From: Shigella phage SHSML-45
Length of the DNA stretch: 64,000 nt
Direction: 5' to 3' (one strand)
Sequence record: KX130863
The notes under the pieces are model-generated. The model ran no database searches. It saw only the letters and a list, made by a program, of their open reading frames with translations, and was not told the origin of the DNA. Shown in pieces: positions 5,235 through 30,743 of the stretch (positions are counted from its first letter, which is position 1; the number at the start of each line of letters is the position of its first letter). The position numbers and the translations under genes are program-made.

Positions 5235-6119
5235 CTATAATAATTCTTGGTATGCTTTCTGATACGCCTCAGTATCTGTAGGTGTATCTTTTGCTAACGC
5301 AATTAGTTCATCCGTTATCTGAATATTCGTATTATAACGTTGGTGGAACTCGTCTGGAATTTCTAGATATCTATTTATGAATGCTGCAGCAAGCGGTGTA
5401 ACTAACCCAATTTCTAGAGATAACTTAACTTGTTTCTCATAAATTAAATATTGAGAATCAGACGGTATTGGTGGGGTTACATCAATTTTTTCTGGTTCTT
5501 TTTCTGGTAGCAATGGATTGTTATACAATGCTTCATCTGGAAGCACAGATTTACGCTCTTTAAATATATAAGTTTCTAGATCAGATGCTTTAGACCCTGA
5601 ATACACAGCAAAAACGCTAGCTTTACCTTGAGATGCCCTAACTGGTAAGTAACTAGTAGGGTAGCTCCTTAATGCATCGTGGAATGGACTTCCTGAGTAT
5701 TTGTATGTATCCCCATAGAGATCATCAATATTCATTCGTTCATCTTCAAAGATATGGAAAGAGCTAAATGATGGGATAGTAAAGTATTCCATCTGTAATC
5801 CATAAACTAAGAAACGATGTGCGTATGCACTGATTTTTAAGACTGTAAATGCTTTCTCACCTTCTTTATAGGAATTGCCTTTTGAAGTAACTTGGTAACG
5901 TTTACAAAACATCTCTACTAGACGTTTCTCATTAATACCAAGAGTGGAGTACAGTCGTCCATTTAATCCTATAAGTGCATCGAACATAAATGCTAGTTTA
6001 TCTTTTTCTTCTTGGGATAGTTCTGGAAATGGCAATACTTTGGCATTAGGAACACTATTGTTCTCTTTAGGTTTTGTTTTACCAGCATTTTGTCTTAGTT
6101 TATCTTTAAAGTTATACAT
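5235..6119 (-). CDS. hypothetical protein (294 aa)
   Basis: First long ORF of the minus-strand early block. Confidence 0.65.
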   Translation of the reverse strand: MYNFKDKLRQNAGKTKPKENNSVPNAKVLPFPELSQEEKDKLAFMFDALIGLNGRLYSTLGINEKRLVEMFCKRYQVTSKGNSYKEGEKAFTVLKISAYAHRFLVYGLQMEYFTIPSFSSFHIFEDERMNIDDLYGDTYKYSGSPFHDALRSYPTSYLPVRASQGKASVFAVYSGSKASDLETYIFKERKSVLPDEALYNNPLLPEKEPEKIDVTPPIPSDSQYLIYEKQVKLSLEIGLVTPLAAAFINRYLEIPDEFHQRYNTNIQITDELIALAKDTPTDTEAYQKAYQELL

Positions 6120-6198
6120 TATTATCTCCCGTTTTTAAGGTCTGGATGACCTTCTTTTTATTTTAGAGCCTCCGTAGAGGCTCATATATTAGGAATTA

Positions 6199-6810
6199 TT
6201 AATCCTTTTTACTCTCATTAATAACAGCCCCCAATGCTTCCATAATTGCATCTTCTAGACTTCCATGTTTATCAGGATTACTAAAATGAATAGTATAAAC
6301 AGAATTCCTAGAAACTCCAGCATCCGCAGGTGCTACGCTTCGCATATCAGATTCAAAAGCTTCTTGGGTATGTTGCAGCTGTACAGAAGGGCCGTAATCT
6401 TCACCAAACTTATATGACTGTGTGTTACTTACCACACCCCCACAAGGAACATTGTGCATATCCGACATTAATCTTTTATCAGAATTATTTAACATTGCAA
6501 TTGGCCCAGACTGCCATGGATCTCTAATAGTCACTGGAGTACTAGGGCGGTTCACCTCAGTCTTCACAAGTTTGTACCCTGCATCGATTAGTGCATTAAT
6601 CAGGTTATCCGCCGGGATGCGAGCCGTACCAAAAATCTTACGAGCATCTTCGAGCTTACCTTCAAGATCTTTACATGCTCTAAGGTCAGTGTGTGCAAAT
6701 GTTAGCTTCATAGATTTGAATTGTACAGTAGCAGTTAAATCTTTAAAGCTATAATCCCATGTGTTCAGTTCATGGTCTGGTACTACTTGAATAGGTTGTT
6801 GTGTAAACAT
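6199..6810 (-). CDS. hypothetical protein (203 aa)
   Basis: Long ORF, co-directional. Confidence 0.65.
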   Translation of the reverse strand: MFTQQPIQVVPDHELNTWDYSFKDLTATVQFKSMKLTFAHTDLRACKDLEGKLEDARKIFGTARIPADNLINALIDAGYKLVKTEVNRPSTPVTIRDPWQSGPIAMLNNSDKRLMSDMHNVPCGGVVSNTQSYKFGEDYGPSVQLQHTQEAFESDMRSVAPADAGVSRNSVYTIHFSNPDKHGSLEDAIMEALGAVINESKKD

Positions 6811-18130: not shown

Positions 18131-18816
18131 CTACGCACCTCATAATGTGTTTCTATGTATTGTTCCACTTCTACTGGAGAAACATTGAAAAACTCTGTAC
18201 TTCCACTAAACCCCCCATAACTGCATCTTTTATTTTTATAGACACTATGTAGGTCAGCTTCGATCTTAGCTGTTTCTTCCTTAGAACCCTTGCCACAAAT
18301 ATAGTAAGATGATACTCTCAGATCTTTAAAACCACTACAAGACTTAACTTCTAGAAGTCTTTTCTGCACACTCTTACTTATACCTATTTTTATGCCTTTA
18401 TCTGAAACAAATATGTATAAAAATCCTTGTGTATCCCAAGCTGTTTTGGCACAATTTGGGCACCCACTATGGTGTAAAACGTGGTTAGTGGTTGTCTCCC
18501 ACTGATGGGAACATGTATTACATAAAAACTTTAGCTTAGAAGTAGAATTAGTATATTCACTTAGTAATACGATTTTTCTAGGACTGAGGAGTGAGTTAAT
18601 CCTGTCTTTGGTTAACTTTTCATTGCCTGCACATTTTGGGCATCCTCTACCTTTATTTCTGACATTTGTAGGGGCTGTTAACCATGTATTAGAGCATATA
18701 AGACACTTAAATTGTGTCTTTGTCTTATTATGTTCATATTCCCCTACTAATCTTACTGTCCTACCTTGAGCTTCTAAATCTTTATTAAAGATTTCTTTAT
18801 TTATTTTTACGCTCAT
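18118..18816 (-). CDS. zinc-ribbon repeat protein with C-terminal T5orf172/GIY-YIG-like domain
   Basis: Three CxxC..CPxC repeats then a C-terminal domain shared with the 44003..44866 paralog. Confidence 0.6.
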   Translation of the reverse strand: MSVKINKEIFNKDLEAQGRTVRLVGEYEHNKTKTQFKCLICSNTWLTAPTNVRNKGRGCPKCAGNEKLTKDRINSLLSPRKIVLLSEYTNSTSKLKFLCNTCSHQWETTTNHVLHHSGCPNCAKTAWDTQGFLYIFVSDKGIKIGISKSVQKRLLEVKSCSGFKDLRVSSYYICGKGSKEETAKIEADLHSVYKNKRCSYGGFSGSTEFFNVSPVEVEQYIETHYEVRRCTK

Positions 18817-19222
18817 CCCTACAGTACTCCAAGCTACCAGAAAGACATGCTAATCTTTCCTCGAATTCCTTACTCTGCTTTTTAGCAATTAATGTAACCA
18901 ATCCAGGCTTTGCAGCTATAATATCTTGACGACTAAGTGCTTTATCAAGCTGATTAATTTTCTTGTCTAGATCTGCTTGCGAAACATTATTCATTGTGAA
19001 ATACTGATTCATTCGAGTCTCACGAAGTTCACTCTCAGCCCTCACATTATTAAGGGAAGTTTCTAGAGAAGAGATCTTTTTAGTAGCTACTGCAAGATCA
19101 CCTGCTAGAGTCTCAACCTTATTAACTAAGTGATAAGCACCGAATCCGATGCCTATCGCCAAACCAGCTCCCAGGATATACCACTTACCTTGCCATAGAG
19201 AACTAATAAAGTTTTTTATCAT
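18797..19222 (-). CDS. membrane-anchored coiled-coil protein (141 aa)
   Basis: N-terminal TM helix. Confidence 0.5.
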   Translation of the reverse strand: MIKNFISSLWQGKWYILGAGLAIGIGFGAYHLVNKVETLAGDLAVATKKISSLETSLNNVRAESELRETRMNQYFTMNNVSQADLDKKINQLDKALSRQDIIAAKPGLVTLIAKKQSKEFEERLACLSGSLEYCRDERKNK

Positions 19223-25290: not shown

Positions 25291-25476
25291 TTACTCAGCT
25301 TTGAGTTTTTCAATAGCTGCATTAAGTTCTTTAAGAAACTCTTTTCGTACATTAAGACGATTGAGACTTACTAGTATATCATGTTTAAGTTCTTCGATGT
25401 ATTTCTTCTCAACTTCAATATTGTTGATAGTGCTATCACGATGAACTTCTAGCTGCGCAATCACATTCTTGGACAT
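25291..25476 (-). CDS. hypothetical coiled-coil protein (61 aa)
   Basis: Short ORF between tRNAs. Confidence 0.35.
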   Translation of the reverse strand: MSKNVIAQLEVHRDSTINNIEVEKKYIEELKHDILVSLNRLNVRKEFLKELNAAIEKLKAE

Positions 25477-25503: not shown

Positions 25504-25576
25504 TGGTATCTGTGGCTGAATTCGATGTCAGCAATGATAGCTGGTTGGCTACCGGTTTACTTAACTCTACACAGAA
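25504..25576 (-). tRNA. tRNA-like element (anticodon unresolved)
   Basis: Encoded CCA, 7-bp acceptor with one mismatch, GCTGA/TCAGC stem, but anticodon loop of 6 or 8 nt. Confidence 0.3.
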
Positions 25577-25578
25577 TT

Positions 25579-25661
25579 TGGCGGGCCGTGTAGGATTCGA
25601 ACCTACGTTGTCTTTCGACACGGATTAACAATCCGCCGCCAAACCGCTTGGCTAACGACCC
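25579..25661 (-). tRNA. tRNA with anticodon GTT (Asn) and a 13-nt extra arm
   Basis: Acceptor GGGTCGT/ACGGCCC, D-arm GCCA-AGCGGTT-TGGC, T-arm GTAGG-TTCGAAT-CCTAC, variable hairpin TGTC-GAAA-GACA. Confidence 0.55.
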
Positions 25662-25813
25662 TAAATTTATATTGCTGACTAGGATTTTCACCTAGACGGA
25701 GTTAGCACCGTAGCGTGTAGCGGCATACCTCTCCAAACCGTGCCTCATCTTTCAATTACGGAGACAGTGTTCCTACGCGTGCCTGAATTGATTTAACAAT
25801 TCTTTCAGCAAAT

Positions 25814-27557: not shown

Positions 27558-28076
27558 TTAGAAATTTAGCTTCATGGCAAGAAAATTTTTCAAGTTTTCG
27601 GTAGACATCTCATCCACATCTATAGGAGAAACAAACCCATTTAATTGTCTAGCAAACTTTTCGCCAGCAGGATCATTATCCCCAACAGCTACCAATTTAA
27701 AAGGTAGTAATTTCAATTGCTTTAATAGCGGTTTTCCTGGAGAAGAACCCAACATTGCTAGAGCAGGATACCCAGCATTATGTAATGCTACAGCCTTAAA
27801 TACAGATTCAGCAATTAATACTACTTTTTCATCCCCATTGAGAGTTTCTAGTCCCCATACACACTGTGTAGTAGAATAAGTAAAATATCTAGCTTCAAAG
27901 GGGCACTTACCATGACCTTTTGGAGCAGAAGGATTATAAGTCTGATAGCCTCTCAACATTCCAGAGAAGTCATACAATGGGACTGTTAGCCATCCTTCTG
28001 GGCTTAACCAGCAGTGATATTTATCTGTATCAAACCCTCTAGATAAGAGATGTTCTGTTAGTTCATCAATAGTCAT
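27558..28076 (-). CDS. hypothetical protein with Toprim-like motif (start at internal Met behind the conserved leader)
   Basis: VVLIAESVF..AVGDNDPAG resembles Toprim acidic motifs; leader ATAAATTTGAGAGAGG precedes the ATG. Confidence 0.5.
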   Translation of the reverse strand: MTIDELTEHLLSRGFDTDKYHCWLSPEGWLTVPLYDFSGMLRGYQTYNPSAPKGHGKCPFEARYFTYSTTQCVWGLETLNGDEKVVLIAESVFKAVALHNAGYPALAMLGSSPGKPLLKQLKLLPFKLVAVGDNDPAGEKFARQLNGFVSPIDVDEMSTENLKNFLAMKLNF

Positions 28077-28297
28077 ACTAGATTCCTCTCTCAAATTTAT
28101 AAATATATTATGCAGAGAATTTAGCATTCAAGCAATTGAATTTTTTAACTTTTTAGAGGAAAATCACAGGATGCTTAAGGGTAGCAGGTAAGTGGGTAGA
28201 CCCCAAAATTGTTATCCCCACTTGATTTTCAATGTGATATAGTGTAAAGTATTTGTCATAGCTGAGTGACCAAAGAGACACACTTATCCTCTACCTT

Positions 28298-29622: not shown

Positions 29623-30123
29623 TTTAAGTATTTTTAAGAACTCTCGTAAAAACTCTTAAAAATACAGACGATACCGGGAGAGTCATAAGTCTCACTCATT
29701 AAGTATTTCAAGACAAAATACAGTAACGTCTATTATTTTCCAGTTTAAGTCAAGGTGACTTAGTGGTTATGTCCTGCGGTATACTGAGGACTCGGTTAGG
29801 TTAGGGTCATGACTCCCCACCTTTTGCTGCTACTCAACAGGAGTTATCGCGAATTACCTGTGCTATTGTGCACCATTAGTGACATCTCTCATGTCAGCAT
29901 TTCCCACTTTGTGGATAGCTTGAAAAACTACTCCGATATGGAGAAAGAACTTCACTATCCTAGAATACCTTCTAAAGTTCTTCTTTAGCCTGGACATAGT
30001 TAAATCGTAATAAAACTATTCAGCAGACTGGTTGGTTAGTCTGGAACCAACTACCGCGTGGTTTAGGCAGTGCGCAACTAACCTCGGAAGCTTTTACGTT
30101 AAAAGCACCAGTTATCCAGTTCT

Positions 30124-30195
30124 TACCGACCGTAGGATTCGAACCTACATCTTCCACCAGTTACGGCTTGATAATACCGTTTATACTAGATCGGC
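30124..30195 (-). tRNA. tRNA-like element (anticodon arm unresolved, CCA not encoded)
   Basis: Canonical T-arm GTAGG-TTCGAAT-CCTAC and acceptor GCCGATC/GGTCGGT with two G-U pairs; no standard anticodon stem found. Confidence 0.35.
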
Positions 30196-30308
30196 AGTGT
30201 TACTACATAAGTGATTTCCACACCCCACTATTTATAAATTAGAGAAGAATTACTCTCTAATTTATGAATATATTATACAGAATTTATAAGCATTTAGCAA
30301 ATGAATTT

Positions 30309-30743
30309 TTAGAAAAACTCGCTAGCAATCAAGGCGGCTGTTTTACCATCATAACGCCCCGGAAACTCTGCCTTAATAGTTTTCATTAGGAGAGCTTTGG
30401 TAATACCTGGGTTTAGCTTAACCAATTCTGCAAAATATTTACGAATTTCAGTTTCAGTTAGCTGTTGTAGTGCATAATCATGCTCTAAACGCGCTAAAAG
30501 ATCTAAGTATTCAGCATCAGGAGTATAGTCAACATTCGATTTTTCAGCGGCAATCCGTGTATTCTCAATTGCTTTGAGTTGTGATTTCAACCAGTTAGTA
30601 AACTCCAGCTCAGTTACGCAATCTTTATCAATACGTTGCAGGTCTCCTAGAACCGTACTTAGATGCTTAACTGATACAGCGTCACCACTTTTGCGAGCAG
30701 CTTCAATCAACTCTCGCAGTACATAAAGCATGTTCATGCCCAT
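30309..30743 (-). CDS. hypothetical protein (144 aa)
   Basis: ORF. Confidence 0.55.
   Translation of the reverse strand: MGMNMLYVLRELIEAARKSGDAVSVKHLSTVLGDLQRIDKDCVTELEFTNWLKSQLKAIENTRIAAEKSNVDYTPDAEYLDLLARLEHDYALQQLTETEIRKYFAELVKLNPGITKALLMKTIKAEFPGRYDGKTAALIASEFF

Follow-up and report, generated by a model that had tools for sequence, protein, structure and literature searches.

A tRNA-Asn gene with a long variable arm in Shigella phage SHSML-45 and its relatives in phages and tRNA arrays

By the textbook rule, long variable arms are confined to tRNA-Leu, tRNA-Ser, bacterial tRNA-Tyr and tRNA-Sec. Here we describe a tRNA-Asn(GUU) gene of Shigella phage SHSML-45 (sequence record KX130863) that carries such an arm, the family of genes to which it belongs, and what the arm may do for the phage. 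The analysis covered a stretch of 64,000 nucleotides of this record, called the window below. The window is that of a T5-like phage: the 7-kb stretch around the gene is 99.8% identical to Salmonella phage Shivani (Demerecviridae, Tequintavirus), and in Shivani, as in many relatives, GenBank already annotates the tRNA-Asn. A preliminary description, made from the letters alone, had drawn attention to a long arm, a feature that bacterial tRNAs normally have only if they are specific for Leu, Ser or Tyr. The arm is indeed present in this Asn tRNA.

The tRNA-Asn gene and its alleles

ARAGORN finds ten tRNA genes in the window, on the minus strand between 23.8 and 30.2 kb, and the tRNA-Asn gene (83 nt, including an encoded CCA) sits in this cluster of a virulent phage (Table 1). 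The preliminary description had the extent of the gene and its Asn anticodon exactly right, as judged by ARAGORN and Rfam; the strand, which it did not give, is the minus strand. With the Rfam model RF00005 the gene scores 58.4 bits (gathering score 29), third best among the ten, and the alignment to the model places a 10-nt insertion in the variable region. The minimum-energy fold from RNAfold is a cloverleaf with an extra hairpin at -33.9 kcal/mol (z = -3.1 against dinucleotide shuffles, with an equally good fold in 1 of 200). Written 5' to 3' and divided by arms, the RNA is GGGUCGU-UA-GCCA-AGCGGUU-UGGC-G-GCGGA-UUGUUAA-UCCGU-[GUC-GAAA-GAC-AAC]-GUAGG-UUCGAAU-CCUAC-ACGGCCC-G-CCA, with the variable region in brackets. 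Promoter and terminator scans returned nothing above chance.

The fold contains the canonical acceptor, D, anticodon and T arms that had been described, the acceptor stem being a perfect 7 bp and the acceptor/T architecture a normal 7/5. It also contains the 13-nt variable segment with its GAAA-tetraloop hairpin. This hairpin had been drawn with a stem of 4 bp (UGUC/GACA). The hairpin and its loop hold, whereas the fourth pair does not: it would use U43, which is paired with G27 in the cloverleaf, and it is not conserved in relatives. The arm is thus one of 3 bp, a GAAA loop and 3 unpaired nucleotides. No rival fold with a 5-nt variable loop or another anticodon came from ARAGORN, Infernal or RNAfold, and the 4-nt loop of the arm is too short for an anticodon loop. 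In its variable region the tRNA is of class II (at least 10 nt forming a stem-loop) and not of class I (4-5 nt). Two other class II features are missing: the D-stem has 4 bp rather than 3, with A13 and U22 paired, and the anticodon is not that of Leu, Ser or Tyr.

The same locus in T5 carries a different allele, a 78-nt class I tRNA-Asn with mismatches in its anticodon stem (GCAUC/GUUGA). In an alignment that also included phage bobsandoy, the sequences of the window and T5 do not differ up to and including tRNA-Cys, nor do they differ beyond the start of the CCA of tRNA-Asn, and the boundaries of the swap are sharp. Between them T5 has a 519-nt open reading frame (ORF) that overlaps its class I tRNA-Asn, and the window has a 152-nt spacer followed by the long-arm gene. 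The T5 ORF (T5.069; 6007-6525 of the extracted T5 locus, L012) is annotated in the relatives DaisyDussoix and 3sent1 as a T5orf172-domain protein or putative homing endonuclease. Since this putative homing-endonuclease ORF lies beside the T5 allele and is absent beside the long-arm allele, the arrangement points to homing as what drives the exchange of alleles here. Among T5-like records the long-arm allele is about twice as frequent as the T5 allele (268 vs. 134). A third allele (86 nt; bobsandoy and Bas33) has other D, variable and T arms but the same acceptor stem. The commoner long-arm allele carries the compensatory changes C28U/G42A.

Table 1. Positions in the window of the tRNA-Asn gene, its parts and nearby elements
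Feature	Position	Strand	Basis or remark
Whole tRNA-Asn(GUU) gene	25579..25661	-	ARAGORN, Rfam, cloverleaf fold, annotation in relatives
Acceptor stem, 5' strand GGGUCGU (G1-C72, G2-C71)	25655..25661	-	pairs with 25583-25589
D-arm: stem GCCA/UGGC (4 bp), loop AGCGGUU (G18G19, C16)	25638..25652	-	sequence, fold
Anticodon arm GCGGA-UUGUUAA-UCCGU; GUU at 25627-25629; A37	25620..25636	-	sequence; E. coli comparison
Extra arm, 13 nt: GUC 25617-25619, GAC 25610-25612, loop GAAA 25613-25616, unpaired AAC 25607-25609	25607..25619	-	fold, covariation
T-arm GUAGG-UUCGAAU-CCUAC	25590..25606	-	sequence, Rfam, fold
Acceptor 3' strand ACGGCCC, G73 (25582), encoded CCA (25579-25581)	25579..25589	-	sequence
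152-nt spacer between tRNA-Cys and tRNA-Asn	25662..25813	-	alignment of window, T5 and bobsandoy; T5 annotation
Structured 75-nt element	25504..25578	-	fold (z = -3.15)
61-aa ORF, DUF7337	25291..25476	-	E = 5e-30
189-aa ORF, Toprim domain	27558..28127	-	Pfam Toprim_2, E = 1.8e-4
ARAGORN 'tRNA-Ser(ACU)', 74 nt	30123..30196	-	Rfam tRNA, 36.8 bits
144-aa ORF, 'tRNA amidotransferase' in Shivani	30309..30743	-

A family of long-arm tRNA-Asn genes

The window gene does not stand alone: class II-like tRNA-Asn genes of its kind form a widespread and covarying family in phages and tRNA arrays. Of 50,697 phage records searched by BLAST with the 83 nt, 636 matched. The T5-like records counted above are at least 95% identical to the window gene, and 38 are 100% identical. 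Full-length matches of about 80% identity occur in quite different phages, and every representative that was fetched proved to be a tRNA-Asn(GUU) of 83-87 nt with a hairpin in the variable region. The carriers include Proteus phage Stubb (Novosibvirus), Providencia phage PSTCR5 (Priunavirus), the Epseptimavirus phages bobsandoy and 26175IV, the T4-like Jiaodavirus and Karamvirus, Marfavirus, Phapecoctavirus and a phiKZ-like Pseudomonas jumbo phage. IMG/VR was scanned with a pattern made up of an anticodon loop, 15-24 nt and a T-loop; this gave at least 120 matches, of which at least 42 are genuine long-arm Asn genes, with at least 38 distinct sequences; the other listed matches are chance occurrences in coding DNA. 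In all, 65 unique long-arm Asn tRNAs were collected from five or more unrelated phage lineages, Demerecviridae and Straboviridae among them, and from many IMG/VR contigs.

How common the design is among viral Asn tRNAs was estimated by a second scan with one anticodon-stem pattern that allowed short and long variable regions alike. It returned about 19 long and about 98 short Asn genes (about 16% long-arm). The loci differ in their tRNA content, the median being 11 tRNAs at long-arm loci vs. 3 at short ones.

In cellular genomes the design is rare. The long-only pattern, applied to 185,579 bacterial and archaeal species genomes (one for each species), gave 31 loci. Several of these are giant tRNA arrays as delineated by ARAGORN: Micromonospora/Verrucosispora with 23-36 tRNAs in 8 kb, Methyloprofundus with 26 tRNAs, the metagenome-assembled genome (MAG) of a member of Flavobacteriales with 21, Agromyces, and others. 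The remaining loci are singletons on small MAG contigs and a few non-tRNA or duplication artefacts, so that the confirmed cellular long-arm Asn genes lie in giant arrays or on small MAG contigs only. The window gene has its long-arm design in common with units of such arrays, but its setting is a virulent phage and not a plasmid or chromosomal array; a class II-like Asn is absent from the published account of the arrays that was consulted. Among 5,426 complete E. coli genomes none has a match to the window gene, and 5,425 have the ordinary 76-nt tRNA-Asn, at a median of 4 copies.

Two kinds of cellular long pattern have another appearance. In Azoarcus sp. L1K30 (L264, 114-200) a chromosomal tRNA-Asn reaches 87 nt through a 10-nt tandem duplication (UCCGUAGGUC) that spans the junction of the anticodon stem and the variable loop. 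Its variable region has thus become long in another way, and the gene may be a pseudogene. In four MAG loci of Saprospiraceae/Bacteroidetes (L236, L243, L253 and L258) the long pattern occurs once or twice per locus where ARAGORN calls no tRNA, and an ordinary class I tRNA-Asn lies nearby; these matches may be partial tRNA duplications at integration sites.

Long-arm Asn or Thr tRNAs of phages have no earlier description in the literature that we searched, which left subscription journals and the T5 tRNA sequencing of the 1980s largely uncovered, and an older account is possible. The long-arm Asn family, together with the long-arm Thr tRNAs described below, appears almost only in phages and mobile tRNA arrays and is, to this extent, an unrecognised exception to the textbook rule. 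For annotation it matters that long-arm genes are sometimes mislabelled or missed.

The extra arm covaries. A consensus fold by RNAalifold left out the extra helix, probably through heterogeneity of register and length, and for this reason the pairs were counted explicitly: 38 diverse members were aligned with MAFFT, and pair counts were set against column shuffles and slid registers. The arm helix is paired in 75.2% of cases vs. 42.8±3.4% in column shuffles, none of 500 shuffles being as high, and its covariation score is 0.674 vs. 0.162 in shuffles and at most 0.261 in slid registers. The two central pairs run through GC/UA/AU/CG/GU and GC/CG/AU/UA/UG, respectively. In the same alignment the acceptor helix shows covariation at all 7 pairs. 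The fourth pair of the D-stem, present in the window gene, is absent in 26 of the 38 members, which therefore have a class II-like D-stem of 3 bp. The gene very probably specifies a working tRNA, and selection, as the covariation of the stem indicates, preserves the arm.

The arm is of the tRNA-Tyr type, and not of the Ser or Leu type. This emerges when the arms of about 1,400 tRNAs of these loci are compared in their geometry. The variable region of the 65 long-arm Asn tRNAs has 11-19 nt (mostly 15), with a stem of mostly 3-4 bp, 0-1 unpaired nucleotides on the 5' side and most often 3 on the 3' side; the loop has 4 nt in 48 of 63, GAAA in 27, and other GNRA loops are common. Viral Tyr tRNAs have 13-14 nt, a stem of 3-4 bp, 0-1 unpaired nucleotides at the 5' side and most often 3 at the 3' side. 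The corresponding figures for length, stem and the most frequent number of unpaired 3' nucleotides are 16-20 nt, 4-7 bp and 1 for viral Ser, and most often 13 nt, 2-5 bp and 2 for the class II members of viral Leu. In class I viral Asn tRNAs the variable loop is 4-6 nt in 91 of 92. The resemblance to bacterial-type tRNA-Tyr further includes the tetraloop and the shared G34 and U35, and the tRNA-Tyr of the window, whose arm is likewise 13 nt long, agrees with the tRNA-Asn in the 3' strand of the anticodon stem. The differences lie in the anticodon (GUU, not GUA), the discriminator (G73, not A73), the 1-72 pair (mostly U-A) and the loops (GNRA, not UUCG).

Probable aminoacylation and a proposed role of the arm

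The asparaginyl-tRNA synthetase (AsnRS) of E. coli has G34, U35, U36 and G73 as its identity set (PMC9976931, a review by Giegé and Eriani). The window tRNA has all four, and because of this it is likely, as far as identity elements predict, that the host AsnRS charges it with Asn. So charged, it would decode AAC/AAU, which make up 5.5% of the phage codons (GC 38.7%). The preliminary description had thought that the identity determinants might be unusual. This idea finds no support: the Asn set is complete, G73 is found in 60 of 65 long-arm Asn tRNAs (A73 in 46 of 50 Tyr), the geometry of the arm is of the Tyr type, and G73 with U36 argues against TyrRS, for which A73 and U35 are critical (PMC9976931) and of which the window tRNA has U35 alone. 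GatCAB requires U1-A72 (PMC9976931); the window tRNA has G1-C72, which is irrelevant in enterobacteria as they use AsnRS. U1-A72 is found in 38 of 65 long-arm Asn and 72 of 92 class I Asn tRNAs, Tyr and Ser being mostly G1-C72.

Compared with E. coli tRNA-Asn (asnT/U/V/W, 76 nt), the window tRNA shares A37 besides the identity nucleotides, and the anticodon stem GCGGA/UCCGU is identical; the anticodon arm differs only at position 32 (U vs. C). Elsewhere the two are unlike. A 13-nt hairpin arm stands in place of the 5-nt loop of E. coli, G1-C72 closes the acceptor stem of the window tRNA, no similarity detectable by BLAST extends beyond the anticodon arm, and the body, when that arm is masked, is not classed as Asn. 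The last point comes from isotype hidden Markov models trained with the whole anticodon arm masked, which avoids circularity, as both Asn sets had been found via that arm. In cross-validation these models recovered class I Asn at 85%, Ser at 90%, Leu at 91% and Tyr at 78%. They emulate the isotype scoring proposed in the preliminary description, and with them the body of the window tRNA scores Cys > Trp > Tyr > Ser. Models of the 5' half alone cross-validated poorly (Tyr 0.22) and were left uninterpreted.

Why should a phage tRNA-Asn have the arm? Two nucleases are relevant here. AriB (PARIS) cuts E. coli tRNA-Asn(GUU) in the anticodon stem, between 40 and 41, and the Lys, Thr and Asn tRNAs of T5 jointly neutralise PARIS; a second AriB subunit is modelled on U16-U17 of the D-loop, and U16C impairs cleavage (PMC12409363). 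The substrates of P2 OLD have CNG at 28-30 and 40-42 together with A37, and tRNA-Asn(GUU) is among them; class I phage Thr tRNAs resist P2 OLD only if the stem is shortened in addition to alteration of the motif (PMC12445682). The variable region is unmentioned in these PARIS and OLD papers.

The window tRNA is a phage-encoded isoacceptor of this target of AriB and P2 OLD, and it occupies the locus of the T5 anti-PARIS tRNA-Asn. The published resistant phage tRNAs escape by substitutions or mismatches in the anticodon stem or the D-loop, whereas the window allele retains the host stem and adds the arm. It keeps CGG/CCG and A37 exactly as in the host, without substitutions at the cleavage site, but in the D-loop it has C16, the nucleotide by which U16C impairs cleavage by AriB. 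Any evasion of these nucleases by the long-arm allele should then have its determinant largely outside the anticodon arm, the stem being host-identical.

We propose that the extra arm would give the core of the tRNA another shape where it adjoins the anticodon stem, and that the Toprim nucleases that cut the tRNA-Asn stem (AriB, P2 OLD) would no longer accept the phage tRNA despite its host-identical stem. Toprim is the fold of the tRNA-cutting AriB, OLD and RNase M5. The arm would be a structural alternative to the mutated, mismatched class I stem of T5 at the same locus. A tRNA so shielded could keep a host-identical anticodon arm, preserving recognition by the synthetase and for modification, and yet escape cleavage. 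Both the resistance to nucleases and the arm as its cause are here what we infer from the comparisons. Evasion of anticodon-stem nucleases is a plausible role for the arm, to which we give an even chance or slightly less; the reading that we favour overall, of an Asn-charged long-arm tRNA with an arm maintained by selection that evades stem nucleases, we regard as evenly poised. A broader version is more tentative: phages may have evolved class II-like forms of class I tRNAs (mainly Asn, also Thr(UGU), sporadically Lys(UUU) and others), with the Tyr-type arm as a steric shield against Toprim nucleases. If true, there would be a second, structural route of tRNA-based counter-defence, in which the arm hides the tRNA from Toprim tRNases without mutations in the stem. 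The design also suggests a route to engineering nuclease-proof or orthogonal tRNAs.

Two published puzzles may be explained in this light, both in Bas phages. Under PARIS, tRNA-Lys alone rescues Bas33, while T5Mos and Bas34 need T5 tRNA-Asn supplied (PMC12409363). Bas33 (HildyBeyeler) has an intact 86-nt long-arm Asn, its sole tRNA-Asn, and an 87-nt long-arm Thr(UGU), and lacks Lys(UUU); T5Mos has no Asn gene. That Bas34 should need T5 tRNA-Asn though it 'encodes' one puzzled the PARIS authors (PMC12409363). The Bas34 (SelmaRatti) 'tRNA-Asn' (L272, 14599-14681; MZ501103, 72598-72680) is in fact a deletion chimera: as far as the T-loop it is a long-arm Asn, and its 3' end is that of the initiator tRNA-fMet. 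It has no acceptor stem and no ARAGORN call, and the z of its fold is -1.3. The need of Bas34 for external tRNA-Asn follows from this defective Asn/fMet gene, and for the same reason its failure under PARIS was rejected as evidence against the arm.

The other puzzle concerns P2 OLD. The Bas33 Thr(UGU) brought the plating of phages sensitive to P2 OLD back almost to the wild-type level, E. coli ThrU gave no rescue and T5 Thr a partial one (2026 preprint). The Bas33 Thr keeps C28-U29-G30/C40-A41-G42, A37, a paired 27-43 and the full 5-bp stem, the same core as E. coli thrU, the sequence of which we verified. With the motif intact and the stem full, the two-factor rule (PMC12445682) predicts that it should be sensitive to OLD. 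The obvious differences from E. coli thrU are a Tyr-type arm and a class II-like D-arm. Such long-arm Thr(UGU) genes (18775-18861 in the Bas33 locus, L273; 4406-4492 in L039) have the arm A-GGA-GUAA-UCC-CGUU, and they are found in about 100 T5-like records and in Aeromonas phages. The Thr(UGU) of Bas32 (IrisVonRoten), considered as a proof of arm-mediated resistance to OLD, was rejected in that role, being an ordinary 75-nt class I tRNA. Of most other class I isotypes at the loci examined, 0-7% of the genes have a long variable region; by anticodon, Thr(UGU) stands at 5 of 52 (10%), Trp at 3 of 42 and Lys(UUU) at 2 of 51. Anticodons of Toprim targets have the long arm in 8 of 142 genes vs. 12 of 801 for the rest (odds ratio 3.9, p = 0.006), a weak signal in favour of evasion that is suggestive and post hoc.

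Several observations weigh against nuclease evasion by an Asn-charged tRNA. The masked models score just 21 of the 65 long-arm genes best as Asn, and on the ranking that they give to the window tRNA its body appears atypical for Asn. Work by Ruff and colleagues from 1991 is reported to have found that synthetases of class IIb come to their tRNA from the side of the variable loop, and a long arm might therefore hinder AsnRS. The family also occurs in marine and actinobacterial settings for which we know of no tRNA-Asn-directed nuclease. The Asn allele of Bas33 is just 80% identical to that of the window, which makes the support from Bas33 indirect. The long-arm Asn of SP15 has served in experiments as a negative control only, against a Lys-specific PrrC. 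Finally, the arm is not necessary, as the class I Thr tRNAs of Bas32 and T4 protect equally against OLD (2026 preprint).

The main rival is that the arm is a historical relic. It would have come from a class II ancestor, such as tRNA-Tyr(GUA) or tRNA-Ser(GCU), through a single change of the anticodon and a change of the discriminator, and would be kept for folding; the tRNA would merely boost Asn decoding in an AT-rich, Asn-rich phage and have no role in defence. The codon usage given above fits this, as does the arm geometry, since GUA to GUU is one change. The D-arms are Ser/Tyr-like, mostly with the 3-bp stem, and the masked bodies of family members often score Ser, Leu or Tyr. Covariation, moreover, shows that the helix must form and not the reason for it. 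Recent duplication from a Tyr, Ser or Leu tRNA of the same genome received no support: none of the long-arm Asn tRNAs closely copies one, the nearest being 58-73% identical and the nearest neighbours scattered over isotypes. A relic also leaves unexplained why the family is abundant in phages and arrays and nearly absent from housekeeping sets, why alleles are swapped at one locus, and why the same design recurs in Thr(UGU), another Toprim target. On balance we consider a relic unlikely, though it deserves to be kept in mind.

An improbable alternative is that the tRNA acts as a decoy, instead of or beside its role in translation: a host-like anticodon stem-loop would serve as bait, bind the nuclease unproductively and titrate it. 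The host-identical stem would suit such a sponge, and competition by viral tRNAs was raised by the PARIS authors (PMC12409363). However, an OLD-resistant phage tRNA left the host tRNA cleaved, which indicates supplementation rather than inhibition (2026 preprint). The conservation across the family of G73, U1-A72, the encoded CCA and the T-loop also speaks for a tRNA that is charged and used in translation.

Long arms also bring serine to mind. The tRNA-Ser, tRNA-Sec and allo-tRNAs are charged by SerRS regardless of their anticodon, and they have a long arm and G73, as the window tRNA does along with its G1-C72 and G2-C71. These could recruit SerRS (or TyrRS), and AAC/AAU would then be read partly as Ser or Tyr. 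E. coli SerRS ignores the anticodon and reads the variable arm, the tertiary shape, G73 and the first acceptor pairs (PMC9976931), and one member of the family (L207) has a 7-bp Ser-like arm with a Ser-like D-arm. The arm is, however, much shorter than in tRNA-Ser, tRNA-Sec and allo-tRNAs, with about 3 unpaired 3' nucleotides instead of 1; the acceptor/T architecture is 7/5 and the Asn set is complete. In the window tRNA, 13 nt, 3 bp and 3 unpaired nucleotides do not make an arm of Ser-type size and orientation, and shape is part of what SerRS reads. Most members have U1-A72, and the A73 that is critical for TyrRS is replaced by G73. Insertion of Ser for Asn across the proteome, at the codon frequency given above, would be costly, and Bas33 needs no external tRNA-Asn. 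A switch of identity is thus very improbable, with a small residual chance of serylation of the window tRNA.

It is still less probable that the arm marks self from non-self, sparing the phage tRNA while a nuclease of the phage degrades those of the host. The candidate nuclease would be the Toprim-domain ORF of the tRNA cluster (Table 1). Its Pfam match is marginal, searches of PDB and PADLOC found no similarity to RNase M5, AriB or OLD, and the same ORF is present in T5 despite the class I allele there. The ORF is annotated as 'DNA primase' and equals T5.076; its only PADLOC match is a weak DnaG-like one (RTasDnaG-like, DRT). That the gene is a pseudogene or an artefact of annotation, for which the broken gene of Bas34 offers a precedent, can practically be dismissed given its perfect acceptor stem, canonical arms, encoded CCA, Rfam score, conservation among T5-like records and covarying family.

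Neighbouring and related elements

The long-arm gene is followed directly by another structured element. Abutting its 3' CCA is the 75-nt element of Table 1, which ends in ACCA, has no Rfam match and is the counterpart of T5 'RNA3, putative tRNA-like RNA'. Past it, 102 nt downstream of tRNA-Asn, lies the 61-aa ORF with DUF7337, conserved beside both Asn alleles in T5-likes. The possibility that tRNA-Asn and this small ORF form a mobile cassette was rejected: DUF7337 is found in T5-likes only, and also beside the class I allele of T5.

Two further elements lie just beyond 30 kb. In the 'tRNA-Ser(ACU)' of ARAGORN the acceptor stem and the T-arm are well formed, but the D and anticodon arms are degenerate and a long arm is missing; rather than a serine tRNA, it is probably a tRNA-like RNA from the region that corresponds to 'rnaX' of T5. 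The 144-aa ORF has no Pfam match at E <= 0.01, and its annotation as 'tRNA amidotransferase' looks unsupported. A link between this ORF and tRNA-Asn was considered and rejected, as it has no Pfam support and the same ORF is found in T5.

In Proteus phage Stubb an ORF with a cREC_REC domain (L001, 486-685; E = 5e-11) adjoins the long-arm Asn and a tRNA-Met. cREC_REC is a cyclic-phosphate-processing receiver domain associated with RNA-repair systems.

A further class of long-arm genes goes under the ARAGORN label 'tRNA-Ile(UAU)'. Of 14 such genes, 10 are 91-96 nt long and have a long arm (e.g., L054 5224-5314, L066 9355-9446 and L064 1697-1792; IMG/VR). These have A73, an encoded CCA and a recurring motif in the arm loop (CAGAUUAG/CAGAUAAU), and are another unexpected class II-like tRNA type in phage clusters.

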